This document shows, one piece after another, positions 2,653 through 16,310 of a stretch of 22,232 nt of DNA (positions are counted from its first letter, which is position 1; each line of letters begins with the position of its first letter). The notes under the pieces are model-generated. The model made no database searches, was not told where the DNA came from, and saw only the letters and a program-made list of their open reading frames with translations. Position numbers and translations under genes: made by a program. The stretch lies in the IMG/VR virus record IMGVR_UViG_2703718827_000007. One strand, written 5' to 3'. Source of the stretch: a virus. Lineage: Duplodnaviria; Heunggongvirae; Uroviricota; Caudoviricetes.

Positions 2653-3072
2653 ATGTACCAAATGCCATGTCTTGGATATATGATGATTGCCATTCTAAAC
2701 AAAGCTAAAGGGAGGGTTGGTGTGAATGCTCAGGCTGTCATCATGGTTTTACTTGGTCTGATTGTCGCAAAACTATATCCAGACTGGTGGAAAGGGGCAT
2801 TAGCAACTGTCGCCATCTATTTGCTTTTATCCGTCGTTAAGCGATCGTTCGTTAAGACCGTAAATCAAGCAAAACGTTTCTCATTTAAGAATTTAATAAA
2901 CTATATTACTGGGCTTATTTTTTGCCTTTCAATTTTGATCGCTTCAGCTTTTTTGCCCGTATCAATAGCTAATTTTTTTGGCGCACCATATGAGGTAGGT
3001 TATCTATTCTCTGTTTTTTGTCTTGTTCTTTCCCTTCTTTACCTATGGATGAGAGCAAAGAACAAAAATTAG
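2653..3072 (+). CDS. Small polytopic inner-membrane protein, immunity-protein-like (maximal ORF; probable true start GTG 2722, about 117 aa)
   Basis: Three to four hydrophobic helices (AVIMVLLGLIVAKL, LATVAIYLLLSVV, ITGLIFCLSILIASAFL, LFSVFCLVLSLLYLW). GGAGGG lies 5 nt upstream of the in-frame GTG at 2722. The gene is AT-rich relative to its neighbours and converges on the 701-aa gene with only 18 bp between the stops. Confidence 0.6.
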   Translation: MYQMPCLGYMMIAILNKAKGRVGVNAQAVIMVLLGLIVAKLYPDWWKGALATVAIYLLLSVVKRSFVKTVNQAKRFSFKNLINYITGLIFCLSILIASAFLPVSIANFFGAPYEVGYLFSVFCLVLSLLYLWMRAKNKN

Positions 3073-3090
3073 CCATCCATGGCTAACCAG

Positions 3091-5196
3091 TTATTGAGAT
3101 TCTTTTTGTGATGCCTGTGCGACTCTGGTGAGCGATTGTGTGACCGTACTGATCGCTCTGTCATATGCTGTGCTACCTTTTGGCGTATTTGCCAGACGTA
3201 ACAAGGCATTTCGTATAACAGGGCTTTCGTATGCCTTCGCTGCTCCGCCTACGGCACCAGCAGCAGGAACAACAAACGCAGCCGTTTTTAGCATCCCCGC
3301 TAATACTGCTGCGTTTATGATGCCACCACCAACTAACAATCCATAAAGCTGCTGACCATTTAAGTTTTGAACGTTCGCTTTTGCCGCGTGTCTTGTATCG
3401 TTGAGGTATTTAATAACGCCGTCCAGTTCCTTTCCATGTACGCCTTTAAAGAAAGTTGCTGATTGCTTCCTGTTCCGGTGTAACGCATTAATAAACTTCT
3501 CAACACTGATATTTCCAGACGGATCAGTCGCCTTATCTACAGCATTCTGAACTATGGCTGCTCGTGCGTTTTGCCTACCATTGTCATCCAGAAGCCTGTA
3601 AAGCTGAGAACGTTCTGATGGGCTTTGGCTAAAAACGAGTTTTGTTACATCCTCAGGCGTGGCCTTGCCGCTGGCTATTGCCTTTTGAACGCGCGTTCTT
3701 CCCATCATGTCATTGAATTTAGACCATGAGCGATCAACCCTTGCCATATTAATGGCTTCGTCTGCTCCAAGATTTTTGGCTACGGCTTTTTTCATATCCG
3801 CCGTATATGCCTTGTAGATAATATCGCTGGCTTTCTGGAGCGTATCTTTATCAACAGTGTCAGATGACGCCATAAATCGCTTTCGAAGATCGGTTCTGTT
3901 TTCCCTCGCCAGACGCAGGTCATTTGGTCCGCTGGTGATATCGTCTTTAAATTGCTGCAAGACTTTTACCGCGGCTCTATCCTGAGATTTGCCCGGGCGG
4001 CTTAACACGGCAATCTGATTGTCGATAGCTTTTACCGTGTTTGAGAGATCGACAGGGGTATCCCCCATAGCGTCAATTATGCGGTTATATCGCTTTCCTG
4101 CTGCCTCAATGAATTTTTGTTGCCCTTTAGTCGCAGATTCATAAAGCTGTTTATCAGAAATGCCACCCAGACCATCGCTAAATGTTCTGACTAAATTTTC
4201 TCGTGCTTGTTGTTGATTCAGCCGATTCTTACCGGTTCCAAAAAAAGGAACTCTTTCGCCTAATGTCTGAGCCTGACTCTGCATAAAGGTTTTATCTTTC
4301 AGCATGTCACTGGTCATTAACGGCAGATTTCTTTCCGATGCAAAGTCGACAGCAGCCTTTGCTTCAGGCGACATATCACCACGAACAGCCCTCGAAACCG
4401 CACTCGCTGTATTTTCCAGCCCCTTACCAATACCACCAATGCCAGCAGAAATTACCGTTTGTAACGGATCAATATCTTCTCCACCAGCAAGGCTGGTGGC
4501 TCCCTGTAGTGCTAAATCTGTAGCTGCTGATTTTCCTATGGCACCAAGCACCGTTCCAGCCCTGCCCGCTGGTGTAAACGCCAACGCATTAGCAAGAAAC
4601 GAGGTCAGGTCTTGCGGTGATAAACCCGGCTTGTTCAGGGCATAATCACCTGATGGCAGAGAAACGATAGTATTCCCCTTCTCATCCTGCCTTAATGTCG
4701 CCCCCATTCCCTGAAGAATCTTTTCCTGAGACGCGTCAGAGCCGAAAAGTTGAGACCATCCAGCCTTTAGGGCATCCATGCTTAGTGAGTTCAATTCTGG
4801 GGCAGAGGCGACATTTTGCAGTCTCTCCATCTCTGGAGTCATTCGGCTTTCGCCTGTTATAGCATCGCGCATCGCAGCCCCAAGACTGGCTCCCTGTTCT
4901 GCTGAACGCTCAAGCCCCTCTCTTTGCTGAGTAGCTAACTTTGCATACCCTGACGCAAGAGAATTATCAGATGATGTATGTTGAATATTTTGAGTTGCTG
5001 ATTGGGATCGGTCTATTTCATTCGTTGATGGTAGTGGATAGGCAGCATAAAAAGCCTGCTTAGCCTGCTCTACACTTTCTCCGGCTTGCGGGGCCACGAC
5101 TTCATTGAAGTATTGCTCCTGAGCCTGCGCTTTTTGTTCTGGTGCTAACGCCTGATACTGTGGAGAGGCGATAACATCTTTCCATGCTTTAGCCAT
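3091..5196 (-). CDS. Hypothetical 701-aa protein: Ala/Gln/Gly-rich, predicted helical, with a C-terminal glycine-zipper hydrophobic hairpin
   Basis: Long ORF. ATG at 5196 is preceded by GGGGTGA and overlaps the upstream stop (TAATG). C-terminal LYGLLVGGGIINAAVLAGMLKTAAFVVPAAGAVGGAAKAY is a roughly 40-aa hydrophobic hairpin. No nucleotide-binding or catalytic motif recognised. Confidence 0.85.
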   Translation of the reverse strand: MAKAWKDVIASPQYQALAPEQKAQAQEQYFNEVVAPQAGESVEQAKQAFYAAYPLPSTNEIDRSQSATQNIQHTSSDNSLASGYAKLATQQREGLERSAEQGASLGAAMRDAITGESRMTPEMERLQNVASAPELNSLSMDALKAGWSQLFGSDASQEKILQGMGATLRQDEKGNTIVSLPSGDYALNKPGLSPQDLTSFLANALAFTPAGRAGTVLGAIGKSAATDLALQGATSLAGGEDIDPLQTVISAGIGGIGKGLENTASAVSRAVRGDMSPEAKAAVDFASERNLPLMTSDMLKDKTFMQSQAQTLGERVPFFGTGKNRLNQQQARENLVRTFSDGLGGISDKQLYESATKGQQKFIEAAGKRYNRIIDAMGDTPVDLSNTVKAIDNQIAVLSRPGKSQDRAAVKVLQQFKDDITSGPNDLRLARENRTDLRKRFMASSDTVDKDTLQKASDIIYKAYTADMKKAVAKNLGADEAINMARVDRSWSKFNDMMGRTRVQKAIASGKATPEDVTKLVFSQSPSERSQLYRLLDDNGRQNARAAIVQNAVDKATDPSGNISVEKFINALHRNRKQSATFFKGVHGKELDGVIKYLNDTRHAAKANVQNLNGQQLYGLLVGGGIINAAVLAGMLKTAAFVVPAAGAVGGAAKAYESPVIRNALLRLANTPKGSTAYDRAISTVTQSLTRVAQASQKESQ

Positions 5197-6662
5197 TAAT
5201 CACCCCATAGTGAAGAAAAGTTACTGCTGGCTGCTGGCTGTGATACCTGCTCAGATTGCGGCAATGTCTGCGACGAAGAAGCAGTTCCTCTGTCAACTGC
5301 TGAAATAACCCGCAAAGCATCATAAGTTCGACCAGAAGCAGCTTTCAGCGAATTGAACTGGTTTTCCATCTTCCGGCGCTTGGTATCAATGGTTTTTGTG
5401 GAATCACCAGGCTGAGGGAAATACATTTGATAATATTTGGACATTTCAGCTGGTAGGATAGATGCCCCTGTTTCCTGACGGAGTATTGCCATTATTGCGT
5501 CATTAGCATTAACAACGTATTGCTGCTCTGCTGGGCTGAGCGTTAAGTTAGCCAGCGTCCCATTACCCAAAGCATTATTAATGATCGCCACTCGCTGTGG
5601 GCTAAGCTGGTCTTTCAGTGTATCTATTGAATCAAGAGCATCCCTAACCCTGTATGCAAATCCAGCAGCTTTTTTAGCCCCTTCTGGCGACTTTTCCATG
5701 ATCTTTTGGGCTGTTGGCAAAGCTATTGGACGAAACCCATCTCCAGATATTGGCTGGTTTAGTTTTCCCTGCTCTTCACTTCCGTCTGTGTAGTATTTTG
5801 TGACAGTGCCATCATCGTTTTCTCTAACACTCATTAATTTTTTGGCGTTTGTATTAATTCCAGCCGCTGCCGCAAATGCCGCCGCCCCCTCTGGATCCGC
5901 CTTTAACATTTGCGCGTACTGATTGTAATTCTGCATTGCTGCTGTTGGTGCATATGCTGACGTTAACGCATTTGCTCGGCTAATATCCTGCCCTCTCGCC
6001 TGAAGTGCTTCGCCAGCCTGATTGCTGCGGATTGTCTCTGCCAACTTGCCACGCTCAATATCCCGACCTTCCATTTGATCTTTGATATCGAAATACTTCT
6101 CATGACCGAGAGAAAACAGCGCCAGATTACCTGCGAAATGCTGGAAGCCCTGCGGGTCATTAACCTGCATTTCAGCAATAGTTTCTGGAGGGATACCTAA
6201 ACGACGCATCTCCTGCTCATTATCCATCATGAACCTGCCAAATGCGCCCTGACCAAGCGATGAGGCTACCTGTGCTTTGAGCGCCAGATTGCCATAATCA
6301 TCCCTTTGAGCATCATCGACATAACTCATCCCTTTACGGACTTCCTCAAACTCTTCTGGGAATGCTGTAATAAGATTACGCATCTGCTCCCTGTCACCGG
6401 ACGCATAAGCATCTGCATAACCTTTCTGGAATGCCGCTTTACGCTCCTGCTGTTGCTGCTGCTTATAAATATCAGCAACGCCAGCCAGACCACGAAGACC
6501 TGTCAGAGCAACGTTATTTGCACCTGAGCGAGCCAGTTCATTGTTTTCGCGGATCAGACCAAGCGTTGCGTTAATGTCGCTTGCCTTTGGCGCATTCTCA
6601 TTTTGCGTACCGATGCCAGCCAGAAAACCACCAGAATTAATACCCTGTTGCCACGTAGCCAT
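5196..6662 (-). CDS. Hypothetical 488-aa protein: Gln/Ala-rich, predicted helical or coiled-coil (ORF track extends to a GTG at 6674)
   Basis: ATG at 6662 (MATWQQ...) lies 4 nt after the stop of the 57-aa ORF. Stop overlaps the start of the 701-aa gene, indicating translational coupling. No enzymatic motif recognised. Confidence 0.85.
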   Translation of the reverse strand: MATWQQGINSGGFLAGIGTQNENAPKASDINATLGLIRENNELARSGANNVALTGLRGLAGVADIYKQQQQQERKAAFQKGYADAYASGDREQMRNLITAFPEEFEEVRKGMSYVDDAQRDDYGNLALKAQVASSLGQGAFGRFMMDNEQEMRRLGIPPETIAEMQVNDPQGFQHFAGNLALFSLGHEKYFDIKDQMEGRDIERGKLAETIRSNQAGEALQARGQDISRANALTSAYAPTAAMQNYNQYAQMLKADPEGAAAFAAAAGINTNAKKLMSVRENDDGTVTKYYTDGSEEQGKLNQPISGDGFRPIALPTAQKIMEKSPEGAKKAAGFAYRVRDALDSIDTLKDQLSPQRVAIINNALGNGTLANLTLSPAEQQYVVNANDAIMAILRQETGASILPAEMSKYYQMYFPQPGDSTKTIDTKRRKMENQFNSLKAASGRTYDALRVISAVDRGTASSSQTLPQSEQVSQPAASSNFSSLWGD

Positions 6663-6666
6663 TGAT

Positions 6667-6840
6667 TTACCCACGTCCAGTTAAAGTGTAAGCCAGCGCC
6701 TTATCCATTAATCCCCGAGCAATTTCGTGGATCGTTGGCGCAACTCCTACCTCTGATTTTTTACGCTGCTCCTCCTGAATTTTCTTTATCGCTTCCATTT
6801 GCTTCTCACTTATCAATACTGGCTTTACTGAAATAGCCAT
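6667..6840 (-). CDS. Small 57-aa protein, first gene of the SOS-box operon (possible small DNA-binding or chaperone-like protein)
   Basis: ATG at 6840 preceded by AGGGGG. Translation MAISVKPVLISEKQMEAIKKIQEEQRKKSEVGVAPTIHEIARGLMDKALAYTLTGRG. Below the 60-aa cutoff of the ORF track, so found by manual translation. Confidence 0.45.
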   Translation of the reverse strand: MAISVKPVLISEKQMEAIKKIQEEQRKKSEVGVAPTIHEIARGLMDKALAYTLTGRG

Positions 6841-6854
6841 AACGCCCCCTTAGA

Positions 6855-6872
6855 ACTGTATAAAACAACAGT
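6855..6872. promoter_or_regulatory. LexA (SOS) box ACTGT-N8-ACAGT overlapping the operon promoter
   Basis: ACTGTATAAAACAACAGT matches the CTGT-N8-ACAG consensus with an AT-rich spacer. It lies between a TATAAT -10 (complement of 6875-6880) and the ATG at 6840. Confidence 0.55.
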
Positions 6873-6935
6873 CATTATAGTTTCATAAAACGCAACATTC
6901 ATAATTGTGATTGCAAAATATGAAACAAATAGCAC

Positions 6936-6968
6936 AAAAAAATGCCACCGTTCAGTAGCTGGTGGCAT
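6936..6968 (-). terminator. Rho-independent terminator (minus strand) ending the primase/153-aa transcript
   Basis: On the minus strand an 8-bp GC-rich stem (ATGCCACC...GGTGGCAT, 11-nt loop) is followed by a T7 run. Located 50-85 nt downstream of the stop of the 7021-7479 gene. Confidence 0.55.
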
Positions 6969-7020: not shown

Positions 7021-7479
7021 TTATGGAGTCGCATTACTCTTCATGGCGTGAGCTTTCCTGTTCTCTCTTTGTTCCTGGTTCCATGGATAAGTGTAATTGC
7101 CACCAGCAAAGACCATATTGATTTTGTGAGGAACCATTAAAGCGATATCAGCACTCATGTCACTGAATGAAACACAGTGCAGGCGTTCAAGCCATTTGTA
7201 TGCTGCTGCCGCTTCTCCCCACAAATTAATCCCTGCAAGTTCAACAATATCTCTGATGGAGCAGATATCAACCATCCCGTTAACGCCTGTAAAACGGCGT
7301 TTAAAGTCGCCAAGATACTTTCTGAAAAGAGTTGCTTTCATTGGTTCAGAAAGGTCTATGTATGGGAACACAACCACATCAAGCAGCATCTCCCTTCTGT
7401 TGTTCATCGGTATTACAGATGGCAAATCGGATACTTTGCCAAATACATGATGAAAAGCCTTTGCGATTATCTTCATCAT
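7021..7479 (-). CDS. Hypothetical protein, about 152 aa
   Basis: ORF track start at 7482 is TTG; ATG codons at 7479 and 7476 follow GGGAGA. No family recognised. Confidence 0.6.
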   Translation of the reverse strand: MMKIIAKAFHHVFGKVSDLPSVIPMNNRREMLLDVVVFPYIDLSEPMKATLFRKYLGDFKRRFTGVNGMVDICSIRDIVELAGINLWGEAAAAYKWLERLHCVSFSDMSADIALMVPHKINMVFAGGNYTYPWNQEQRENRKAHAMKSNATP

Positions 7480-7575
7480 CAATCTCCCACTGAAACCAGT
7501 GATGTGGTGTTCAGATTTCGTAAAACACTCTCTAATGCCAGCCAGATGTTGTGCTCATCAATTCAGTCACGTTGT

Positions 7576-7686
7576 GTTGGTTCAAAATGCCGTGTTGTTG
7601 GTTCAGTGTTGGTTCAATAAAAAGAATAAAATCCTTATAAAACAATACTCTTTACAAATTGAACCAACTGAACCAACTGAACCAAC
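7576..7686. repeat. Iteron cluster 2: 3 GTTGGTTCA copies (7576, 7597, 7608) plus 3 tandem TGAACCAAC (7660-7686)
   Basis: Same 9-mer as cluster 1 in mirrored arrangement, immediately 3' of the primase-helicase stop at 7712. Analogous to the ori/crr repeats bound by P4 alpha protein, but with a different repeat unit. Confidence 0.6.
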
Positions 7687-7711
7687 ACCTTTTCTACGCA
7701 CATGAAGAAGC

Positions 7712-10468
7712 TCATTCTTCAGATGAGTTGTAATCTCCTGGCTGGTAATTGAGTACATAAACGTTTATTTGTCGTCCCTGAATACGTGGTGATTTTCTTT
7801 GGTATCCACGACCGCTGTTTGGTGGGGTTAGCATCCCGGCTTTTTTCAACACTTCAGCAAACTGTTTTGCGTTGAAACCACATGCGATCTCCTTTTCAAA
7901 TGTGGCCGGGAATGTGTAGAAAATCATTGGGCTTTCGTCATGTTCTCCACGCTGACGGTATCCGGCTAAATCTTTGATGGGCAAATCTGCCGGGCTGTAT
8001 GGAAATGGTGCAAAACGGCTAAGCCCATAGGCATTAAGAAATGCCTCCGTTTGTTCAATAATCTGCTGATGCTCTTTGTTACCTGTGCCGAACTCGCGCA
8101 ACCATGCGTTATAGCTGTGCTGTATCGCATCACGGCATGTCTGAGCATCCCAGCCTGTTACAACCTCGCCTAACAACAATGCGGCCTCCAGAATGGCAAA
8201 TCGCGCGGCTACACGGTGAACCTGCTCACCATAATCGGATGGGATCAGGCTTCTCCATCTGCTTTCGCAGTCACGAACAGTTTTAATAGCCTGTTGCTGG
8301 TGGTCTGCCAGCCATTTAATCCACTCACGCCCGGACGCGCCGTGGTGATGCTGGTAAGCGTCTTTCAGTGCGTCTGCGTGCTGTTTTCCGTTCTGGTAAT
8401 CGTGAAAGCGTACTGCTTTACTCAACGGAATATTCAGCAGTCGCACCAGTTGCCCGGCTTTGGTTTTTCGCCCGGAAGTAGCGATAAATGTTTCTAAATC
8501 CATTTCTCCGGTGCTGATTGCCACTGTACGCCAGCGTTTTAGATCCCGGTTTCCACCATCTTTAGCGCCTTGCAGTTTCCCTACACCGTTAAATAACGCA
8601 TAGGCAGACTGTGAAACACTGACAGGATCAGCGCCCTGACCAACTTCATCAAGCGGCATTAGTCCGTCATTGTGGGCGGCGGCTTCATTTGCCAGCCCCA
8701 GCGCGGTTCCGTACCACGTCAGCCGCAGTAAATCAGGGTTGCCGTATAAGCTGCTCGCCACGTTTGCCGTGGTGGTCTTACCTGCGCTCGACTGCTCATA
8801 GAAATGAATGCCGAACCCGTCAGCGCCCACCAGCCCAATCAATGGCGCTGCCAGTGCTGCGCCGATCCCGGTCATCATTGAATAGTTACCAAAGGCCAGA
8901 CGCGCCACGTTATCACGCCAGCTTTTCGCGCTCCCTGAGACGGTATATCCGGCTGCGGCTGAGCTTCTCCCGCTGAACAGCACAGGATTTTCAGGTGTTC
9001 CGATGATTTCCCCATCAGGCATGATGTACGCTCCGCATTGCCAGCCAGTGGCATGAGCAACACGCCACAATTCACGAGAGCCACTGCGTTGTAGCCAGTC
9101 TGCCAGTATTGCTCTGAGGCTGCTTTTGGTCGTGACATTTACCCCACCAGCTTTAAGTGTGCGCCATCCTTCACGTTCACCAATATCAGCCAGTGGAATG
9201 GCAGCGGTTGTCGGCGTTTCAGAACCAAACGACAGCCAGCGAAGAATGAGATACTGGTCTTTATCGTCTCTGCCAGTACCGATAACGCTTAACGGAGAAC
9301 ATAACCAGCTTTCGTTATTGATGATTTCTCCACTCTGGCTGTCAGCTCTCGGAGATACCCAATAAATACCATCCTCGCGGCTTTCTATTCTTGGTTTCAG
9401 TGGGTCGGTATCCATAACCTTAAAATCGCTTCCCTCAATGGTCTGTGGCTCCTGTTTCACGCCATTACCCTGTGGTTGGTACATTGACTTATTGAACGCT
9501 TCTGTGGCGCATTTAATGCCGTGTTTTTGGTGGTAATCATTCCAGTCTGCTTTGTGATCTGTCGGGGGTAATGCCACCCATCCAGAAACAGATAAAGCTG
9601 CCTTTTCTGCTGCTATTCTCCCCGTGTTTTGTCTTCCTTCGCTGTGGTCGTTATCCGCAGCAATGATGATTTGTGCTGAAGGAAATTTATCCCGCAGTAC
9701 CTGGGCGACATATAACAGGTTCCCGGCATCAATCGCCGCCACTGTCAGCGCCTCTGGACGAATTAAATGGGCAGATAATGCCGTTGCCAGCCCTTCTGCG
9801 ATTAAGATGCTCTGTGTTGTTTCTGGTGCGTTTATGGCGTGATATGCCCCCCGCTTTGCTGAACCTGTCAGGAGTCTTTTTTCACCATGTGAGGTAATAG
9901 TCTGTGCTGCTGTTACTGCGCCGGATTTATCCACCAGCGCCAGCAACAGAGATCCATCGGGCAACACGGGGAATGTAAAATCACCTACCCCTTTCGCAAC
10001 CAGATAATCAGATTTGCCGTTTACAGCCTTTCTGCGCATGTCATCAAACTGACGGGAAAACGTATCCCGTCTTTGCTGTTCGTCCTTCTCTGCCCTTTTC
10101 AGGCGCTCCTGTTCGCGTCGCTGGCGCTCGGTTTCCAGTTGTTCCCGTTTCTGGCTGGTGGCTTCTGGTGTTTCCGTTGTCCGGTAATCAATACCCAGAA
10201 CATCAGCGGCAAGAAGCGCCGCCTCTGTTGTGTCGCAGTTATTTACGCGTTTAATTAAATCCAGCCCATCACCAGCGCCGCACTGATTACAGATGAAGCT
10301 ACCGCGCCCGTTGTCATCGAACCGGAATCGATCTTTGCCCCCACATGCAGGGCAGGGAGCATGACGGCGCGGAGAGTCAGGGACATTTATGTTCAGGCAG
10401 CCCAGCACATGAGGCCAGTTGTTTTCAGACGCACTGATAACCTGACGGATAAGATCAATGTTTCGCAT
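7712..10468 (-). CDS. P4 alpha-like DNA primase-helicase (zinc ribbon + TOPRIM primase + P-loop helicase + C-terminal DNA-binding region), 918 aa
   Basis: N-terminal zinc ribbon CPACGG...FICNQCG; TOPRIM-like motifs (EGLATALS, IIIAADNDHSEG); Walker A-like SSAGKTT. ATG at 10468 preceded by a GGGGG stretch. Confidence 0.9.
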   Translation of the reverse strand: MRNIDLIRQVISASENNWPHVLGCLNINVPDSPRRHAPCPACGGKDRFRFDDNGRGSFICNQCGAGDGLDLIKRVNNCDTTEAALLAADVLGIDYRTTETPEATSQKREQLETERQRREQERLKRAEKDEQQRRDTFSRQFDDMRRKAVNGKSDYLVAKGVGDFTFPVLPDGSLLLALVDKSGAVTAAQTITSHGEKRLLTGSAKRGAYHAINAPETTQSILIAEGLATALSAHLIRPEALTVAAIDAGNLLYVAQVLRDKFPSAQIIIAADNDHSEGRQNTGRIAAEKAALSVSGWVALPPTDHKADWNDYHQKHGIKCATEAFNKSMYQPQGNGVKQEPQTIEGSDFKVMDTDPLKPRIESREDGIYWVSPRADSQSGEIINNESWLCSPLSVIGTGRDDKDQYLILRWLSFGSETPTTAAIPLADIGEREGWRTLKAGGVNVTTKSSLRAILADWLQRSGSRELWRVAHATGWQCGAYIMPDGEIIGTPENPVLFSGRSSAAAGYTVSGSAKSWRDNVARLAFGNYSMMTGIGAALAAPLIGLVGADGFGIHFYEQSSAGKTTTANVASSLYGNPDLLRLTWYGTALGLANEAAAHNDGLMPLDEVGQGADPVSVSQSAYALFNGVGKLQGAKDGGNRDLKRWRTVAISTGEMDLETFIATSGRKTKAGQLVRLLNIPLSKAVRFHDYQNGKQHADALKDAYQHHHGASGREWIKWLADHQQQAIKTVRDCESRWRSLIPSDYGEQVHRVAARFAILEAALLLGEVVTGWDAQTCRDAIQHSYNAWLREFGTGNKEHQQIIEQTEAFLNAYGLSRFAPFPYSPADLPIKDLAGYRQRGEHDESPMIFYTFPATFEKEIACGFNAKQFAEVLKKAGMLTPPNSGRGYQRKSPRIQGRQINVYVLNYQPGDYNSSEE

Positions 10469-10480
10469 TCTGGCCCCCGT

Positions 10481-11083
10481 TTAGTGCGTCACTGGTGCTT
10501 CTGGGATGCCGTTTTCGTTTAGTTCGGCAATAAAGCTGTTGTGAAGATCGGCAAGCACTTCTCGCCCAAACGAAGTGAGTGTTCCCTGTTCGACATCGAA
10601 CATGTTGCTGTAAAAAATGATGGCATTCTTTGTTCCGACATCAACACCATATTTCTCGATCATTGCGCCCTCAATGTTGTTTGCCATAGCGAGGCGCTCT
10701 GCTACTGGATACAGCGGCATGGCGACGATGCCATTGGAATAAACAGAAACCACGGAATGATTGCCACTGTCATCAATAATGCTGACGGTGCCGTTTTCCT
10801 TTCTCATTTCATTGATGAATGCTGTTGCTATCAGCCAGCGCCACATAATCACGTGATGCTGTGATGTGTAATCGAAATATCCCTGGTTGCCGCCACTGGC
10901 AATAGCGAGATGTATAAACATGCCTTCATCTGGTTTATCGTCATAATCCCCGGCATCCAGACGATTTACGGCATCAATATATGAGACGGTCTCAACGCGT
11001 TCTGTCATGCCATCGTTGCTGCGGTGCATGATGTTTACGCCGTCAGGCGTTGCTTCTGCATGGAAGGTTAAGAAATTATTCAT
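10481..11083 (-). CDS. Hypothetical protein, 200 aa
   Basis: ATG at 11083 overlaps the stop of the upstream ORF (ATGAATAA). Located immediately upstream of the primase-helicase in the same operon. Confidence 0.6.
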   Translation of the reverse strand: MNNFLTFHAEATPDGVNIMHRSNDGMTERVETVSYIDAVNRLDAGDYDDKPDEGMFIHLAIASGGNQGYFDYTSQHHVIMWRWLIATAFINEMRKENGTVSIIDDSGNHSVVSVYSNGIVAMPLYPVAERLAMANNIEGAMIEKYGVDVGTKNAIIFYSNMFDVEQGTLTSFGREVLADLHNSFIAELNENGIPEAPVTH

Positions 11084-11297
11084 GTTTCGCCTCGCCTGAA
11101 TGATTCTGTAACTCATATTTGCCCAACAATTCGTCTGCTTCCTGAATAGCTTCTGGTACGCCATTGAGCAGTGACATAACCGCGCCAATCATTAACTTGT
11201 CTCTGTTGCTGGGGCTGGCCCCTTCAAGCCAGAACCCTAAAACAGTCTGAACCTGTTCGATGCGACATTGCGCTTCAATGAGCTGGATGTTGGTCAT
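11076..11297 (-). CDS. Hypothetical small protein, 73 aa
   Basis: ATG at 11297 overlaps the upstream stop (ATGA), indicating translational coupling. Confidence 0.55.
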   Translation of the reverse strand: MTNIQLIEAQCRIEQVQTVLGFWLEGASPSNRDKLMIGAVMSLLNGVPEAIQEADELLGKYELQNHSGEAKHE

Positions 11298-11557
11298 TTC
11301 GCACTCTCCACATCGATTAAACTGATATCTATCAGGGAGGTAACTTTTTGTAGCCAGCTATTGATTACTGTCGCCTGTTCCCCTCCCACCGAGGGAATAA
11401 TCTCATTCATCACATGAACCAGACCTGTGCGCGCTCTGGTAAGCCGTTCAGTCGCGCAATCTGCGGGAGTGAATGTGTCTGGATATGGCTCTTCGCGCCC
11501 CAGCAATGATTCAATTTCCAGCTCACACGGATGACGATAAATTAAGTTGATATTCAT
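11294..11557 (-). CDS. Hypothetical small protein, 87 aa
   Basis: ATG at 11557 overlaps the upstream stop (ATGA). Confidence 0.55.
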   Translation of the reverse strand: MNINLIYRHPCELEIESLLGREEPYPDTFTPADCATERLTRARTGLVHVMNEIIPSVGGEQATVINSWLQKVTSLIDISLIDVESAK

Positions 11558-11748
11558 TTTTCACCCCCAAGAATTACCAGCTCGGCACGGGCATCGTTAA
11601 CCAAAGATGAGCACGCTTTAATCGCATCCACGACATCAGCAGCGTCCATTTCTTCAGCCGAAAGACTGACAGCAACCAGGACAGCCGCTGCTTGCTCGAT
11701 TAATTGAAGTGCGGACGTAAGGCGAGGGGTATTAATTGAGTTATTCAT
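11554..11748 (-). CDS. Hypothetical small protein, 64 aa (ORF track lists the longer 11554-11805 version)
   Basis: ATG at 11748 ([10 protein letters not shown]...) overlaps the stop of the upstream frame (ATGAATAA) and follows a G-rich stretch. Confidence 0.5.
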   Translation of the reverse strand: MNNSINTPRLTSALQLIEQAAAVLVAVSLSAEEMDAADVVDAIKACSSLVNDARAELVILGGEK

Positions 11749-12808
11749 TGGTTGCCCCCGTTTTGCATGGCATTTGTCCACCTTCCAGCAGGAAATGAAC
11801 GTCACGAACGGCGAGATCCAATATCGCGAGTAACGCCTTCAGTTTTTCGTCTCGTGAGGGAGAGTTGCTCACCAGAATGTCATTAATCACTTCTGTCAGT
11901 GTGATGATCTGGCTTGTGCGTTCGAGGGGATCCATATGCACATCGTAGGTTTTAATCATGTGCCACCTCCATGCGGATACGACCAGCAAAAAAGCAGACG
12001 TGATCGCGCACCAGAGAACGGCGAGCATCGCGTTCAGACTCGGCAGCAATATGATGAATTTTGGCGGTAATTGTCGGGCAATCGCGGCGAACTGCGGCGA
12101 TAATCCAGATAAATTGCGGTTTTTGGGTAGGGGTAGTAGCCAGCATGTGGCAGCCTCCATTCGATAGCATGTAACGCTACCACCGGAAACGCCAATTTCG
12201 CTGGTGGTAGCCCAGACAGGGTTGGCGTAACCGGCTCGAATGGATACCGGCGCTTCCGAAGAAGCCCCTGCCTGAGCCACCATTGATTGACAAAGGCGCT
12301 GGATTATACACCAACGCCCAAAAAATGGGTGAGTCAGACCTACGACATAAAAAAAGACGCTCGGCGCGTCATATGTCGCCATTCGATTTACCAGGACGCC
12401 AATCCCGGCACCCGTTTTATGAGGTGCCTTATAACCATAAACCGTGTTGCCGCATAACGGCAAGCTCTTTTTTATGGACTCCGAAAACTCACTATTGGAA
12501 GAACCAGAAGCACAGTACATCGCGCTCATTTCGTTAACGTCACGCGCGTGGACGAAGGTTTTTGTGGAGTCACTACGCGAGCAGAGAAAGCCATCTACGA
12601 CCAGAAATTCTCTGGCGCAGCCGCTGACCTTCTCAACGCTAACACCATCGACCGTAATTTCTGACATAGTTAAGGCATCCGCTCCTACCACCAGCAAATG
12701 ATAAACTTTGCTTGTATCTGCTGTATTAATGCCTGACTTTGCTGTCATATTGCTGGATTTTGGCGACATACCAGCCAGTGAAAATGTCTTCTTCTGGGCG
12801 GTTAGCAT
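11741..12808 (-). CDS. Hypothetical protein; 355-codon open frame with ambiguous internal organisation
   Basis: ATG at 12808 overlaps the stop of the 60-aa gene (ATGCTAA). The N-terminal two-thirds looks protein-like; the middle (about 11960-12170) is Leu/Pro-rich and looks out of frame. A strong internal start (GGAGGTGGCAC-ATG at 11958) would give a 72-aa product, and an alternative-frame ORF at 11952-12170 has its own GGAGG-ATG. Possibly a frameshifted gene or two to three genes. Confidence 0.4.
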
Positions 12809-12984
12809 TTGTTAACCTCCGCGAACTCCTTCATGAAACGTGCCAGCGGTTGTACGCATGGCGATTGATACCCGTCGCGATAAAACGTCACTCGGTTGTG
12901 AGACACGCTTTCGACAGTAACGAGTGCTCCGTGGGCATCTTTGTAGCGTTTTTGAGGTTGTGGTGTTCCTGTCGGCTTAAACAT
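12802..12984 (-). CDS. Hypothetical small protein, 60 aa
   Basis: ATG at 12984 preceded by GGAGG, 3 nt after the stop of the 277-aa gene. The ORF track extends it to 13071, overlapping the upstream gene. Confidence 0.45.
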   Translation of the reverse strand: MFKPTGTPQPQKRYKDAHGALVTVESVSHNRVTFYRDGYQSPCVQPLARFMKEFAEVNKC

Positions 12985-13810
12985 GGACCGCCTCCAGACG
13001 CTTAGCGAGCCAGCGTTGCGACAGGCGGGTGAGTTCTCCTTTGCGCTGCTCATATTCCATGCCCATATCAATTAACGTGATATTGGTGCTTTCGAGATAT
13101 GAGAGGTGCTCAAGCTGTTCTGCGTTCATATGGTCGCGAGGTTCGCCAGAATAGCCATTTATCCGCGCCCACTGCTTAGCAGTTAGCCCACCAAGAACGA
13201 TACGAGAAATCATATTGCTCTCGTTTGTGTAGTGGTGTTGCTGCGTCGTTTTCCCCATCTCGGCACGGGCCATATTCAGCGCATCGCACATTGGCTTAAA
13301 GTTGTTTGCGGCACTGATACGGGCTTTTAGCTGGCGACGATAGCGGGCGGCGATTTCAGGCACGCTACGCTGTAATTCTTCCTCGCACTGGATGAAATAA
13401 CGGCGGATAGCGCGCCCCTGATCATTGCGTTCGATCATTGCCAGTTCTTTCGCCATTCCGACACTTAACAGATAGTCTTTGCCGGGTCTTCCAGACTGCT
13501 TAATCTTGCTGTAAGCCGCGCCATTCGGGATTTTCCCCAAATTTGGGGAAATAGTTTTATGGACTGAGTAATCGTGCCCAATGGTGAAGTCATATTCAGA
13601 GATGCGATCAGTGATCCATGTAGAGAAGTCTTTTCCCACGCCCAACGCTTTGTGTAACGCTTTTGCGCTAACAATATTGGTTTCACGCCCACCGATATGA
13701 CCAGGAATAACCGGGACAATTGCGGCAAATTCATTACCGTTAATTGTGCCCAGAGAGGCGTTCAGATGAGGGGCAGCCTCAGAAATTAATCTGCTTTTTT
13801 CGATGTTCAT
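12977..13810 (-). CDS. Prophage protein, 277 aa, possibly antirepressor/KilA-C-like
   Basis: ATG at 13810 preceded by GGAG. Segments (NIVSAKALHKALGVGKDFSTWITDRI, GRPGKDYLLSVGMAKELAM, RRYFIQCEEEL) are reminiscent of phage antirepressor-type domains; recollection only. Confidence 0.6.
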   Translation of the reverse strand: MNIEKSRLISEAAPHLNASLGTINGNEFAAIVPVIPGHIGGRETNIVSAKALHKALGVGKDFSTWITDRISEYDFTIGHDYSVHKTISPNLGKIPNGAAYSKIKQSGRPGKDYLLSVGMAKELAMIERNDQGRAIRRYFIQCEEELQRSVPEIAARYRRQLKARISAANNFKPMCDALNMARAEMGKTTQQHHYTNESNMISRIVLGGLTAKQWARINGYSGEPRDHMNAEQLEHLSYLESTNITLIDMGMEYEQRKGELTRLSQRWLAKRLEAVHV

Positions 13811-13822
13811 TTTCAGTCTCCG

Positions 13823-14254
13823 TTAGGCGGCGTTAAACGCGTCCGGGTAGAGTTTCAGAATGTCGGCAATTTCCTGCTGAGAAAGTCCGTTGTGATCATT
13901 TATGTTCGCAAGATGGTTAATATGAGTGATCACTTTCAGAACATCACCACGGCAGGAGAAACGGTAGCGAAGGTGTGTTCCGATACCATCAGGATTCTTT
14001 TCGTCGATACGCTCCAGAGTGATTCCGAGCTGGCGTTCTAACTCTGTTGCATAGTTACGACCAGAAGACAGACGGCAGTAGCGAAGAATGTCATTTTCTG
14101 TCCATCCCTCTATACCAGTACGCAGCATATAGACTCGGGCACGATGCTTTTTCGGCGTGCGCTTTGGTGCTTGAAGGGATTTTGTCAGGGGCGTAACATC
14201 AGATACGCGAATATCTGAATTAGCCGCCTGTAATGGGCGGTTTTTCTTTTCCAT
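13823..14254 (-). CDS. Hypothetical prophage protein, 143 aa
   Basis: ATG at 14254 shares its A with the alpA stop (TGATG). No family recognised. Confidence 0.6.
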   Translation of the reverse strand: MEKKNRPLQAANSDIRVSDVTPLTKSLQAPKRTPKKHRARVYMLRTGIEGWTENDILRYCRLSSGRNYATELERQLGITLERIDEKNPDGIGTHLRYRFSCRGDVLKVITHINHLANINDHNGLSQQEIADILKLYPDAFNAA

Positions 14255-14457
14255 CAGGCCACCTCGTCTCTAGATTCTAATATACACTTCTCAATCCATT
14301 CATCTATTTCAGACTCAACAAAAGCAATTGCCCGACTTCCAATTTTTACCTGTTTAGGGAACCTCCCCTGACTAATAAGACGATAAATCCATGCTTTGCT
14401 ATAACCAGTTCGCCTTTGAACTTCAGAGAGACGAATTAATGAATTGTAATTAGCCAT
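14254..14457 (-). CDS. alpA: AlpA-family phage transcriptional regulator (excisionase-like winged HTH), 67 aa
   Basis: MANYNSLIRLSEVQRRTGYSKAWIYRLISQGRFPKQVKIGSRAIAFVESEIDEWIE is a classic AlpA/Xis-type HTH. First gene of the operon downstream of int. Confidence 0.8.
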   Translation of the reverse strand: MANYNSLIRLSEVQRRTGYSKAWIYRLISQGRFPKQVKIGSRAIAFVESEIDEWIEKCILESRDEVA

Positions 14458-14543
14458 TTATTAATATCCTGTACTAATGACGCAATAACCCCCTCCTGCA
14501 ACGAATGGCGAGAGTTTTATTTGCGTCAAATGTCGAATACGCC

Positions 14544-14578
14544 AAAGACCACAATATGAAAAACATATTGCGGTCTTT
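14544..14578. promoter_or_regulatory. 15-bp inverted repeat (operator or RNA hairpin) in the int-alpA intergenic region
   Basis: AAAGACCACAATATG-aaaaa-CATATTGCGGTCTTT, 14/15 complementary, about 90 nt upstream of the alpA start. Not followed by a T-run on the minus strand, so more likely an operator than a terminator. Confidence 0.3.
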
Positions 14579-14884
14579 TATAAAAGATAGTCAGATTGTT
14601 TTGGTTTGTTTGCTCCACAAGGGTAGAGCTACCCTGCATTTCGGCAGGATCACGCTATTAGGCGTGACATCCAGTAGTTTTAAAGAACAATTGCGCTTTG
14701 TCAGCGCCAAAGCCTGTTAAAGAACATTCCGCTTTTCAGCAGCGTAGAAGGCTCAATACACCTTCGTTTATAAAAGAGCGATTGCCCTTCTCCAGGGCTA
14801 ACTGTTAAATAGCAATCCTCTGTGAGTTTTTATCAATCTACTCCCCTATACTTTAGTAAACCTCTGTATACTTGTCCAGTTGTT

Positions 14885-16099
14885 TCATGCGTGTTTTTCA
14901 AACACCATATGCACCACATTTCCGCCATGCTCGAGAGAATCCATATAGTCGGCATACCATTGAAGCATCTCCCGCCGTCCATCCAGATATTGCGCATGGT
15001 TGTATGTGCCACGAATTGAGTTCTTATCAACGTGAGCGAGCTGCGTTTCTATCCACGCGGTGTTATAGCCCTGCTCATGCAAAATCGTGCTCATAGTGTG
15101 TCGGAACCCATGACCAGTTACACGTCCAGCGTAGCCAATGCGCTTAAACACTTGGTTTATGCTGGCCTCACTCATTGTTTTCCTTGGATCATTGCGCCCG
15201 GGAAACATAAGAGGGTAATTGCCTGTTATTTCTCTAATCTTCCCAATAAGCGAAAGAGCCTGCTCAGACAATGGCACAATATGAGGCCGCCGCATTTTCA
15301 TACGTGAAGCGGGTATCTCCCATATAGCCTTGTTGAAATCAATTTCATCCCATAATGCGCCACGTAGTTCGCCAGTTCGCAAGCCGGTGATAATCAGTAG
15401 GCGAGCCGCCATAACAACCAATGCGCTTCCTGAGTAACTGGATAATGCCTTGAAAAAATCAGGTAATTCTTTGGTCGTAAGGAAAGGGTAATGATTAGAT
15501 TCATGGCCTTGCATCGCGCTAGTAAGGTCTGGTGCAGGGTTATACTCTGCGCGACCAGTGACTATTGCATAGCGGAAAACTTCCCCGCACCGCTGCCTCA
15601 CTTTTTTGGCTTTTTCTGTCGCACCGCGCCCCTCGATGCGCCGCAGCACATTCAGAAGTTCAAGTGGTTTGATTTCGGCGATTGGTTTTTTGCCAATGTA
15701 AGGGAACACATCTTTGTTGAAGGCTTCGAGGATGTCTGAAGCATAACCAGCAGACCATTTTTTTAATTTGCTGCTGTGCCACTCAAGGGCAATATCTTTG
15801 AAGGTGTTGTTTAACTGCGTTTCCCGGGCAATCTTTTCCTCTCGTTTCGCTTCCATCGGATCGATACCACCAGCGATACCTCTTTTCGCATCTTCACGTT
15901 TTGCCCGAGCATCGGCTAGAGTAACCTCAGGATACACACCTAGTGCCAATAGCTTCTCTTTACCAGCTACACGATATTTAAGTCGCCAGTATTTACCTCC
16001 ATTAGGTTTTACCAAGAGATACAAACCGCCACCATCGGCCAGCTTGTAAGCCTTCTCTTTTGGCTTGGCTGTGTCTATTTGACGGGCATTGAGTTTCAC
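14885..16099 (-). CDS. int: P4-type tyrosine integrase (site-specific recombinase), 404 aa
   Basis: N-terminal arm-binding-type region (KLADGGGLYLLVKPNGGKYWRLKYR) and C-terminal catalytic region with the conserved HGFRHT and terminal Tyr context. GTG start at 16099 preceded by GGAGGT. Adjacent to the tRNA-Thr 3' fragment. Confidence 0.9.
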   Translation of the reverse strand: MKLNARQIDTAKPKEKAYKLADGGGLYLLVKPNGGKYWRLKYRVAGKEKLLALGVYPEVTLADARAKREDAKRGIAGGIDPMEAKREEKIARETQLNNTFKDIALEWHSSKLKKWSAGYASDILEAFNKDVFPYIGKKPIAEIKPLELLNVLRRIEGRGATEKAKKVRQRCGEVFRYAIVTGRAEYNPAPDLTSAMQGHESNHYPFLTTKELPDFFKALSSYSGSALVVMAARLLIITGLRTGELRGALWDEIDFNKAIWEIPASRMKMRRPHIVPLSEQALSLIGKIREITGNYPLMFPGRNDPRKTMSEASINQVFKRIGYAGRVTGHGFRHTMSTILHEQGYNTAWIETQLAHVDKNSIRGTYNHAQYLDGRREMLQWYADYMDSLEHGGNVVHMVFEKHA

Positions 16100-16101
16100 T
16101 T

Positions 16102-16247
16102 GGGGGTACCTCCACTAAACCGAACAGCAAATACCCCCATAAGTACCCCCATCTGACCGTAGATTTTGAGGGACTTTAGTAGACGTCAAAAGACGAACGG
16201 GGCTTTAATACGTGGATTATAAGGGGTTTTGAAAGACTTTAGTAGAC
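16102..16247. promoter_or_regulatory. Integrase arm-type repeat region: GGGGGTA (16102-16108), TACCCCCA x2 (16132-16151), GACTTTAGTAGAC x2 (16172-16184, 16235-16247)
   Basis: Direct and inverted short repeats between the int start and the att core. The TACCCCCA pair is duplicated at the distal end (616-635). Confidence 0.35.
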
Positions 16248-16264
16248 TTGGGGAGATGTTTGAA

Positions 16265-16310
16265 TGGTGCCGATAATAGGAGTCGAACCTACGACCTTCG
16301 CATTACGAAT
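16265..16310 (-). pseudogene. 3'-terminal 46 nt of a tRNA-Thr (thrW-like, anticodon CGT), prophage attachment-site remnant
   Basis: The minus strand reads ATTCGTAATGCGAAGGTCGTAGGTTCGACTCCTATTATCGGCACCA: anticodon loop TTCGTAA, T-stem GTAGG/CCTAT, T-loop TTCGACT, acceptor strand plus CCA. No matching 5' acceptor (GCCGATA) or D-arm upstream, so the tRNA is truncated at position 31. Identity to thrW is from memory. Confidence 0.7.

Follow-up and report, generated by a model that had tools for sequence, protein, structure and literature searches.

A P4-like phage satellite encodes homologues of the P22 ejection proteins gp20 and gp16 behind a promoter with a predicted LexA operator

Why should a phage satellite without capsid genes carry two genes of the DNA-ejection apparatus of a podovirus, and why should they stand behind a promoter with a consensus LexA box? 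The question is raised by a 22,232-nucleotide stretch of viral DNA (Duplodnaviria; Heunggongvirae; Uroviricota; Caudoviricetes; IMG/VR record IMGVR_UViG_2703718827_000007), the whole of which is called the window here. In it, a minus-strand operon of three genes, encoding proteins of 57, 488 and 701 amino acids (aa), converges on a plus-strand gene for a small membrane protein (Table 1). An original prediction, made from the sequence alone, had described this module as a toxin/immunity-like cargo of unknown family, laid out like a pore-forming colicin with its immunity protein, and had named podovirus ejection proteins captured by a P4-like element as an alternative. The open reading frames (ORFs), the TAATG overlap between the two large genes, the 18-bp gap between the convergent stops and the CTGT-N8-ACAG box are all located where that prediction had placed them, and its alternative is the one that proves correct: the 488- and 701-aa proteins are homologues of gp20 and gp16 of phage P22, and the element around them has P4-like parts. 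Our preferred reading, to which we give a probability of about 0.5, is that the operon is derepressed in the SOS response and would provide satellite-specified gp20 and gp16 to virions built by a helper phage.

The identity of the two large proteins is practically certain. The 488-aa protein matches Pfam family PF16928 (Inj_translocase, described as "DNA/protein translocase of phage P22 injectosome") with E = 1.6e-83 and 280 bits against a cut-off of 29.7, matches PHROG 917 over its full length (2.7e-142) and aligns with P22 gp20 in BLASTP (8e-85). Identity to the N-terminal half of gp20 is 55%, rising to 94% in the first 50 residues, whereas the C-terminal half of the protein is unrelated to that of P22 gp20; the mechanical longest ORF of this gene is 492 aa, starting from GTG 6674. 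The 701-aa protein matches PHROG 770 'DNA transfer protein' (2.5e-163) and, with residues 210–683 against 151–592, P22 gp16 (BLASTP, 5e-53), a homology that covers most of its length and is accompanied by the overlap of its gene with the gp20-type gene. A prophage gp16 copy that is 97.7% identical to it carries the Pfam family Phage_P22_gp16, and the RefSeq names used in hundreds of Escherichia coli genomes are 'phage DNA ejection protein', 'injection protein' and 'P22-gp16 family'. The label of unknown family has to be dropped for both proteins. The C-terminal hydrophobic hairpin that had been predicted for the 701-aa protein exists as a glycine-rich hydrophobic segment, which, however, occupies residues 617–649 and not the very end; the P22 gp16 residues G532 and P546, sites of escape from the exclusion protein SieA, correspond in the alignment to G614, at the edge of this segment, and to K637, within it. 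A search of Pfam at E values up to 0.1 found no colicin family in either large protein or in the small membrane protein, and PADLOC applied to eight window proteins returned no known defence system and no colicin match. Genes 20 and 16 of P22 share one base, and 22 bp past gene 16 lies the convergent sieA, so the apparent toxin/immunity arrangement, with its stop-to-stop gap of 18 bp (3073–3090) between the 701-aa gene and the plus-strand ORF 2653–3072, is the ordinary gene 20/gene 16/sieA layout of a P22-like phage.

The third member of the P22 ejection set is missing. No gp7 homologue is present in the window: the gene ahead of gp20 is the 57-aa gene, which is unrelated to gp7, and no gp7 remnant was found upstream of gp20, where phage homology ends 10 nt before the start codon. 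Both gp14 and gp7 are present in the sister satellites L015, L036–L044 and EcCIMP1, the last being an island of E. coli MP1. A P22-type gp7 match of 69% identity also turned up in a 1889-bp phage record, OR850267.1 ('Staphylococcus phage SA 1298 Kay'), which is probably a contaminated or mislabelled public record. Nor does the window hold a terminase-like or capsid-size gene or an intact morphogenesis cluster around its two virion-protein homologues; near-identical genes occur in intact P22-like prophages elsewhere.

One of these prophages reveals how far the phage-derived part extends. A blastn comparison of the window with the intact P22-like E. coli prophage L028 gives one contiguous match of 3972 bp and 93.8% identity, bounded by the ribosome-binding site (RBS) of the membrane gene and by a point 10 nt ahead of the gp20 start codon, with satellite sequence on both flanks. 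At the protein level gp20 is 92.8% and gp16 97.7% identical to the L028 copies. The cassette appears to have been taken from a P22-like phage recently in evolutionary terms, or is still being exchanged with such phages. Its genes, as the substitution ratios indicate, are maintained under purifying selection and are not decaying: dN/dS is 0.155 for gp16 (168 nucleotide differences), 0.22–0.41 for gp20, where differences are few, and 0.04 (gp20) and 0.11 (gp16) between two Serratia satellites. Decay of the cassette was considered and rejected on these ratios and on the intact ORFs in all copies examined. RefSeq/PGAP flags the gp16-like gene as 'incomplete; missing C-terminus' in E. coli E143 (L002, 7683–9498) and K56-43-un (L001, 18980–20795); the flagged ORF in E143 encodes the full 701 aa, and the flag there is an annotation artefact, one that would make the module resemble a decayed prophage. 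Alleles differ among near-identical satellites, as between the window and EcCIMP1 and between the window and L005. In E. coli Res13-Lact-PEB17-18 (L030), two satellites, the second near 3.86 Mb, both carry the gp20/gp16/membrane-gene module. They differ in integrase, in integration site (dinD–yicC in one) and in primase (DUF5906 in one), which indicates that the module moves between satellite backbones.

What, then, is the convergent gene, if not an immunity gene? The original prediction of a small opposite-strand membrane protein holds in that hydropathy analysis gives about four hydrophobic segments; its start, however, is probably GTG 2722 (116 aa) and not 2653. This start was chosen on the evidence of E. 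coli E143, whose satellite is otherwise 99.6% identical to that of the window and has a different gene at this spot. The product there has 204 aa, the SieA signature RYPGEA and 29% identity to P22 SieA (E = 8e-8). The DNA of the two satellites agrees letter for letter as far as the GGGAGGG RBS and the GTG, and does so once more past the coding sequence, beginning with the stop codon and the hairpin; by this comparison only the coding sequence is swapped, and the gp16 gene of E143 is 99.9% identical to that of the window despite its exchanged neighbour. The hairpin between the stops is a terminator common to both convergent genes. The window protein itself shows no relationship to P22 SieA (BLASTP E = 0.99; hhalign probability 0.13%) or to the SieA-like protein of E143 (E = 0.2), and the SieA motif FxRYPxEAxxFNK is absent from it; membership in the SieA family was rejected by BLASTP, motif inspection and profile–profile comparison.

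Its homologues nevertheless occupy the position of sieA, as genes for small inner-membrane-type proteins convergent to gene 16 and lying between it and the tailspike gene. They occur in the intact P22-like E. coli prophages L028 and L029 (84% identical), at argW in the remnant of a CUS-3-like prophage (L014; 93% nucleotide identity) and in a Yersinia P22-like prophage (L026; 67% identity), and also in an Edwardsiella satellite; the gene was found in 229 of 5426 E. coli genomes. A tblastn search of 50,697 phage records with this protein found nothing, though prophage copies exist, and its AlphaFold2 model (pLDDT 58) is too poor for a fold search. The protein is a positional and probably a functional analogue of SieA from an uncharacterized family, most likely expressed independently and serving entry exclusion, in the manner of prophages, or another form of lysogenic conversion. 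In Serratia satellites and phage N7 the sieA position is taken by different small proteins of 91 and 106 aa, each with one transmembrane helix at the N-terminus (L006, 13378–13653, minus strand; L004, 6902–7222, minus strand). More generally, the place just behind gene 16 attracts genes for small membrane proteins.

The first gene of the operon does not belong to the phage cassette. The 57-aa family is confined to Enterobacterales (45 hits), an exhaustive hidden Markov model search of 1.8 billion proteins gave 56 short representatives, and the gene is 100% identical at the nucleotide level in four E. coli loci. The promoter, the LexA box and the 57-aa gene are part of the satellite. The AlphaFold2 model of the protein (pLDDT 73) has an extended N-terminus and two helices, compatible with a ribbon-helix-helix fold, for which searches give no support: sequence and profile searches of the PDB and Foldseek returned nothing significant, NikR ranking second with E = 4. 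The protein may be a small DNA-binding regulator.

With the 57-aa family as a handle, 76 loci including the window were gathered from genomes and IMG/VR, and they show what follows this head of promoter and small gene. In all loci with identifiable downstream genes, which are nearly all of the 76, these genes encode virion parts that open the envelope and conduct DNA. The cargo is gp20 + gp16 in Escherichia, Serratia and Edwardsiella; in other loci it is gp14 + gp7 + gp20 + gp16, a 108-aa protein with a tape measure of 857–1162 aa (Erwinia, Pantoea, Chimaeribacter and others), an SLT-bearing tape measure with a Dit-like protein, a baseplate hub and partners (the Klebsiella group), hub sets (Rahnella) or three large internal virion proteins. 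At least 11 genera have the head in front of unrelated delivery genes, and promoter and small gene are found in 501 of 5426 complete E. coli genomes (about 9%), in up to three copies per genome. The 'cargo position' of the original prediction is real in that delivery genes stand behind a satellite promoter, but the cargo is not random, the slot being a conserved part of the satellite family. The gp20 N-terminus varies with the presence of gp7. Satellites lacking gp7 keep the common N-terminus, the first 50 residues of the window protein being 94–98% identical to those of P22, N7 and Kapi1 and 76–78% identical to those of the Serratia and Edwardsiella satellites, whereas satellites with a divergent gp20 N-terminus carry their own gp14 and gp7. 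This co-variation fits a docking of the satellite gp20 onto the gp7 and tail of the helper.

The promoter bears out, at the level of its letters, the predicted consensus LexA box. The coding strand upstream of the 57-aa gene reads TATAAT-GA-CTGTTGTTTTATACAG-T-N8-AGGGGG-N5-ATG, so that a box with perfect arms and an AT-rich spacer begins 2 nt past a perfect TATAAT and stops 15 nt short of the ATG, with an AGGGGG RBS in between; a CTGT-N8-ACAG operator overlapping the promoter or transcription start is the arrangement found in the LexA regulon of Enterobacterales. The core occurs once in 22.2 kb, where 0.2 matches are expected by chance, and on its own, setting aside position and conservation, such a match is only suggestive of a LexA site. 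It is the promoter position, a control locus and the conservation across loci that lead us to judge the box as more than chance. In the control, a 40.8-kb E. coli locus with a sister satellite beside dinD, the pattern has two sites, this box and a box just upstream of dinD, the gene of DNA damage-inducible protein D. The TATAAT is invariant in an alignment of eight loci and present in most further loci. A full box (CTG-N10-CAG) stands at the same place in 24 of the 76 loci, with at least five different spacers between intact arms, in satellites of Escherichia, Serratia, Erwinia, Pantoea and Lonsdalea; for loci with P22-type cargo the figure is 17 of 18, with three distinct spacers. The genome of MP1 has the same promoter with an identical box, AACTGTTGTTTTATACAGTT, in front of a 53-aa homologue of the small gene. 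We consider LexA control of the operon likely.

A second control element may lie next to the box. The promoter alignment, which shows the invariant TATAAT followed by ACTGT, has two conserved dyads upstream that abut the −10 hexamer and are probably the operator of a second regulator, for which the 57-aa protein, AlpA and a helper factor are candidates. A strict two-hexamer promoter scan reported nothing at the operon, the −35 being poor. Elsewhere in the window the dyad motif is about as frequent as expected (13 matches, 13.8 expected by chance) and was rejected on these numbers as a regulon marker; no site matching the dyads was seen upstream of alpA. In other loci (L008, L009, L012, L013, L017, L018, L022–L025 and many IMG/VR loci) the LexA box is replaced by CTGTATAAATATCAG, sharply conserved about 10–30 nt upstream of the small gene, in which CTG and CAG are one base closer together and whose letters are the same in many loci of differing cargo. 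It is either a dead SOS box retained for another role (5′ leader or RBS) or a different operator.

The element that owns this promoter is a Gram-negative phage-inducible chromosomal island (PICI) with P4-like regulatory parts, as its gene content indicates. It has an integrase, alpA and a primase with the putative origin, the iterons, on its 3′ side, lacks capsid and lysis genes and falls in the size range of about 15–20 kb; from primase to integrase its backbone is 96–99% identical in nucleotide sequence to that of EcCIMP1. The gene order resembles that of Gram-negative PICIs (PMC6092414), and the iteron arrays stand where PICIs place the replication origin. The C4 and isrK matches, inside or beside the ash gene, form a P1/P4-type RNA immunity module and support P4-like regulation. 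At the far end of the satellite lies a gene for a PerC-family regulator, whose EcCIMP1 counterpart is reported to repress the locus of enterocyte effacement (LEE) virulence island. Just past the integrase end, a 1484-aa ORF (16701–21155, minus strand) matches a gene annotated as Avs2 (AVAST type 2 anti-phage protein) in near-identical genomes; lying outside the satellite, it points to a second, tandem island that separates the satellite from thrW. Neither a tRNA nor convincing attachment-site repeats were found in the window.

Table 1. Features of the window, with positions counted from its first letter (strand: −, minus; +, plus;., none assigned)
Feature	Position	Strand	Remark
PerC-family regulator	896–1183	−	far end of satellite
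Phage-derived cassette	2701–6672	.	RBS and membrane gene, gp16, gp20 with 10-nt leader
Small membrane gene	2722–3072	+	GTG start; 116 aa; longest ORF from 2653, 139 aa
Hairpin between convergent stops	3067–3088	.	9-bp stem; also kept across the allele swap in E143
gp16-type gene	3091–5196	−	701 aa; ORF reading
TAATG stop/start overlap	5194–5198		joins 488-aa and 701-aa genes
gp20-type gene	5196–6662	−	488 aa from ATG 6662; start set by P22 gp20 alignment
First gene of operon	6667–6840	−	57 aa; ORF reading
LexA (SOS) box ACTGTATAAAACAACAGT	6855–6872	.	core CTGT-N8-ACAG at 6856–6871
−10 hexamer TATAAT	6874–6879	−	operon promoter; read from minus strand
Two imperfect dyads TTKCA-N6-TGMAA	6880–6895 and 6910–6925	−	30 bp apart; conserved columns across genera, alignment A1
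Terminator-like hairpin and T-run	6944–6959	−	splits operon from upstream gene and ends that unit
Satellite backbone	7021–16310	−	153-aa ORF, iterons, primase, small ORFs, ash, C4 RNA, AntA antirepressor, AlpA, integrase
Iteron GTTGGTTCA	7570–7617 and 7654–7688		six copies in two inverted arrays, directly 3′ of primase gene
TOPRIM/DUF927 primase	7712–10468	−	annotation
C4 antisense RNA	12200–12287	−	Rfam, 79.5 bits, above gathering score
isrK RNA	12350–12427	−	Rfam, 67.1 bits, above gathering score
AlpA	14254–14457	−	annotation
Integrase	14885–16099	−	annotation

From the identities, layout, conservation and selection described above we infer a course of events in which LexA binding, virion incorporation and the benefit to the satellite are the conjectural steps. 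With the transcription start covered by the box, LexA bound there would keep the operon silent in the undamaged cell. DNA damage would cleave LexA and at the same time induce a resident P22-like helper prophage, and the satellite would then produce its own gp20 and gp16. In P22 the ejection proteins are assembled into the procapsid and later ejected, to build a DNA conduit across the periplasm and inner membrane. Particles made of helper parts would accordingly receive the conduit proteins of the satellite, while gp7, which touches the conserved tail, would still come from the helper. The most likely benefit would be that satellite DNA could in this way enter cells, including helper lysogens, that exclude the ejection-protein type of the helper; more generally, entry would be tuned to the hosts of the satellite. 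The chance that incorporation into virions alters DNA delivery is even or a shade below. SieA-type exclusion acts via gp16 and gp20, with escape mutations in their C-terminal regions and no involvement of gp7 (PMC10883804), and the passing of such exclusion was proposed as the benefit because these are the very two proteins through which SieA acts; as the selective reason for the module it is, on balance, doubtful.

Several observations weigh against this reading. The box core appears at least once in 19 of 100 shuffled versions of the window. The −35 region of the operon promoter is weak and, together with the conserved dyads, suggests that another regulator may dominate over LexA. In 33 of the 76 loci the element is one base short (CTG-N9-CAG), a form that should escape LexA binding if the spacing is strict, and 19 of the 76 have no box by the pattern used. 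On these two counts LexA control would be lineage-specific and not family-wide; it is well supported for the lineage of the window, and a second regulator is likely. Unless loading is selective, helper particles would likewise take up proteins from a common ejection-protein pool, and the gp20 and gp16 of the window are near-identical to those of some prophages, so that with such a helper nothing would change. LexA binding, SOS induction and virion incorporation are predictions. Lastly, transduction of EcCIMP1 by its helper Kapi1 is inefficient, and a packaging role was suggested for these genes by the authors of that study (PMC11773190).

Other roles for the operon have to be set against this one, and the most serious is interference with the helper, in which gp20 and gp16, as mismatched 'poison' subunits, would ruin the ejection machinery of P22-like phages, helper or superinfecting, or would give, with the membrane protein, the immunity known from EcCIMP1. 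Satellites commonly hinder their helpers, operon I of the Staphylococcus aureus pathogenicity islands (SaPIs) being described as an interference operon in PMC5052747, and the gp20 and gp16 of the satellite are very unlike those of the helper. EcCIMP1 boosts the immunity of Kapi1 lysogens with no known defence system in it (PMC11773190), and PADLOC likewise finds nothing in the window proteins. Yet Kapi1 titres after induction are no lower with EcCIMP1 present (PMC11773190), the satellite would itself travel in the poisoned particles, and expression under SOS only cannot shield an undamaged cell from an incoming phage; moreover, the pairs of 108-aa protein and tape measure and the sets of tape measure, Dit and hub in sister loci look like productive assembly modules. 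Interference or defence is, in our estimate, unlikely. A role in DNA packaging or head morphogenesis, as suggested for EcCIMP1_017–019, is highly improbable. Ejection proteins are indeed assembled into the procapsid of P22, and the gp14-like protein of sister satellites matches PHROG 651 'head morphogenesis'; the genes also lie downstream of the primase, where PICIs keep packaging genes (PMC11773190; PMC6092414). Particles without these ejection proteins, however, fail at DNA delivery, as judged by potassium release (PMC10883804), the window has none of the terminase-like or capsid-size genes looked for, and the tape measures and baseplate hubs of the sister loci are tail parts.

It might also be asked whether the genes serve the satellite at all. 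As a by-product of recombination they would be passengers or a patch of homology, for example for recombining with helpers, a view that gains from the 93.8% nucleotide identity to a prophage in one clean block, from alleles that vary between near-identical satellites (window against EcCIMP1 and against L005) and from copies that PGAP marks as partial. We regard it as quite improbable: the ORFs are intact and under purifying selection, the 'partial' flag proves false in E143, 501 of 5426 E. coli genomes possess the head, and the precise fusion to the satellite promoter and the 57-aa gene is met again, with delivery genes of unrelated kinds, in 11 genera or more. Almost no weight is left to the idea of a pore-forming bacteriocin that is induced by SOS and paired with a convergent immunity protein. 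It had been drawn from the LexA box, the hydrophobic segment in the 701-aa protein and the small membrane protein on the opposite strand, in which the module does resemble pore-forming colicin operons; it differs from them in homology and in lacking colicin domains and a lysis gene. Both proteins are full-length homologues of virion ejection proteins, the same three-gene layout occurs in the late operon of intact P22-like prophages outside any LexA-box context, and the supposed immunity gene is cleanly exchanged in E143 for a SieA homologue next to a gp16 gene that is 99.9% identical. The colicin reading was rejected on the lack of colicin domains and on the homology to ejection proteins. The provision of satellite-specified ejection proteins to helper-built virions thus remains our preferred reading.

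How does this arrangement compare with systems already described? The closest is EcCIMP1 (Pick, Stadel and Raivio, ISME J 2025, PMC11773190), which shares with the window the backbone, the thrW/CP4-6 region, the promoter, the LexA box, the small first gene, the post-primase slot of P22-type 'DNA transfer' genes and the PerC gene at the far end. In MP1 the head is followed by gp14-, gp7-, gp20- and SLT-gp16-like genes and a lipoprotein gene, so that EcCIMP1 carries gp14, gp7, gp20 (439 aa), an SLT-type gp16 (906 aa) and a 232-aa lipoprotein, whereas the window carries only gp20, gp16 and the 116-aa membrane protein; the gp20/gp16 pairs of the two are 16–21% identical. Compared with its helper Kapi1, EcCIMP1 is 21.6% identical in gp20, 19.4% in gp16, 80% in gp14 and 57% in gp7; for the window and Kapi1 the values are 31.7% (gp20) and 20.6% (gp16). 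EcCIMP1 excises only on induction of the P22-like phage Kapi1 (vB_EcoP_Kapi1) and is transduced by it, its alpA shows no induction by damage alone, and it raises the immunity of Kapi1 lysogens to Kapi1 by a mechanism left unexplained, while no known defence system was detected in it and Kapi1 titres after induction are unreduced (PMC11773190). LexA is not mentioned in that paper. The gene after the SLT-type gp16 in MP1 (L087, 12632–13330, minus strand) is co-directional and encodes the 232-aa protein with the lipoprotein signal LLAGC. This lipoprotein is a candidate cause of the superinfection immunity of EcCIMP1, and in EcCIMP1-like islands in general the neighbouring membrane gene might explain it.

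P22 itself (Leavitt et al., mBio 2024, PMC10883804) resembles the window in the homologous gp20 and gp16, in the one-base overlap and in the convergent small gene about 20 bp after gene 16, a likeness completed in E143 by a true SieA homologue at that spot of a satellite. The window differs from P22 in that its genes lie outside a late operon, lack gp7 and head and tail genes and stand behind a LexA-box promoter, in the unrelated C-terminal half of gp20 and in a membrane protein devoid of SieA motif and profile similarity. In Vibrio cholerae, PLE satellites supply a tape measure, a chaperone and a baseplate hub of their own. These are about 20–41% identical to the helper proteins, are selectively built into PLE particles and are needed for transduction, and they were described as the first such case (10.1101/2025.01.29.635557; for chimeric tails see also Nature 2026, PMC12987554). 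Like the family to which the window belongs, the PLEs have satellite-encoded, divergent conduit or tail-initiation proteins, and the identities of both EcCIMP1 and the window to Kapi1 show divergence of the PLE kind. The PLEs, however, belong to a different satellite family and host and concern a myovirus helper and tail proteins instead of a podovirus and ejection proteins; incorporation and the transduction defect on deletion are demonstrated for them and conjectural for the window, and LexA control is not among the features reported for PLE. Direct repression of SaPI operon I by LexA is stated in PMC5052747, which cites Ubeda et al. (2007). The operon resembles the window in having virion-directed genes downstream of the replication module and LexA repression, and it fires with SOS induction of the helper; it encodes small terminase, capsid-size and interference proteins, whereas the window encodes delivery proteins. 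It is also Gram-positive with another LexA motif, and LexA control is shown there and predicted for the window.

A search of the literature on satellites and PICIs with ejection or injection proteins found nothing directly relevant, the relevant papers being those on tape measures and chimeric tails. The element type and the protein families are already known, and such genes had been seen without explanation in EcCIMP1; new in the searched literature are the gp20/gp16/sieA-locus cassette, the LexA-box promoter with its conserved small gene and the rule of the slot. Tentatively, and at somewhat less than even odds, we propose a widespread family of Enterobacterales satellites with a dedicated, exchangeable slot, SOS-controlled in many lineages, for delivery proteins specific to the type of helper: P22 ejection proteins, a tape measure with a putative chaperone, a tape measure with Dit and hub, or internal virion proteins of podoviruses. 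Such satellites would as a matter of routine remodel the injection apparatus of the particles that they take over. The window would then be the first podovirus example of a 'chimeric ejectosome', its gp20 and gp16 an adaptation to pass SieA-type exclusion in helper lysogens and its membrane gene a new exclusion family.

If this is true, a satellite would itself partly set which cells a transducing particle enters, a choice no longer left to the helper alone, and the prediction of host range, of superinfection exclusion and of the spread of islands that carry regulators such as PerC, and defence genes, would change accordingly. For EcCIMP1 and Kapi1 the results offer testable candidates for the role of the 'DNA transfer' genes and for the cause of superinfection immunity. 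The gp20/gp16 pairs that stand beside interchangeable alleles of a membrane protein provide a natural set of variants for SieA-type recognition of the ejection conduit. The 'chimeric tail' principle of PLE would, moreover, be widened to podovirus, siphovirus and myovirus helpers across the Enterobacterales.

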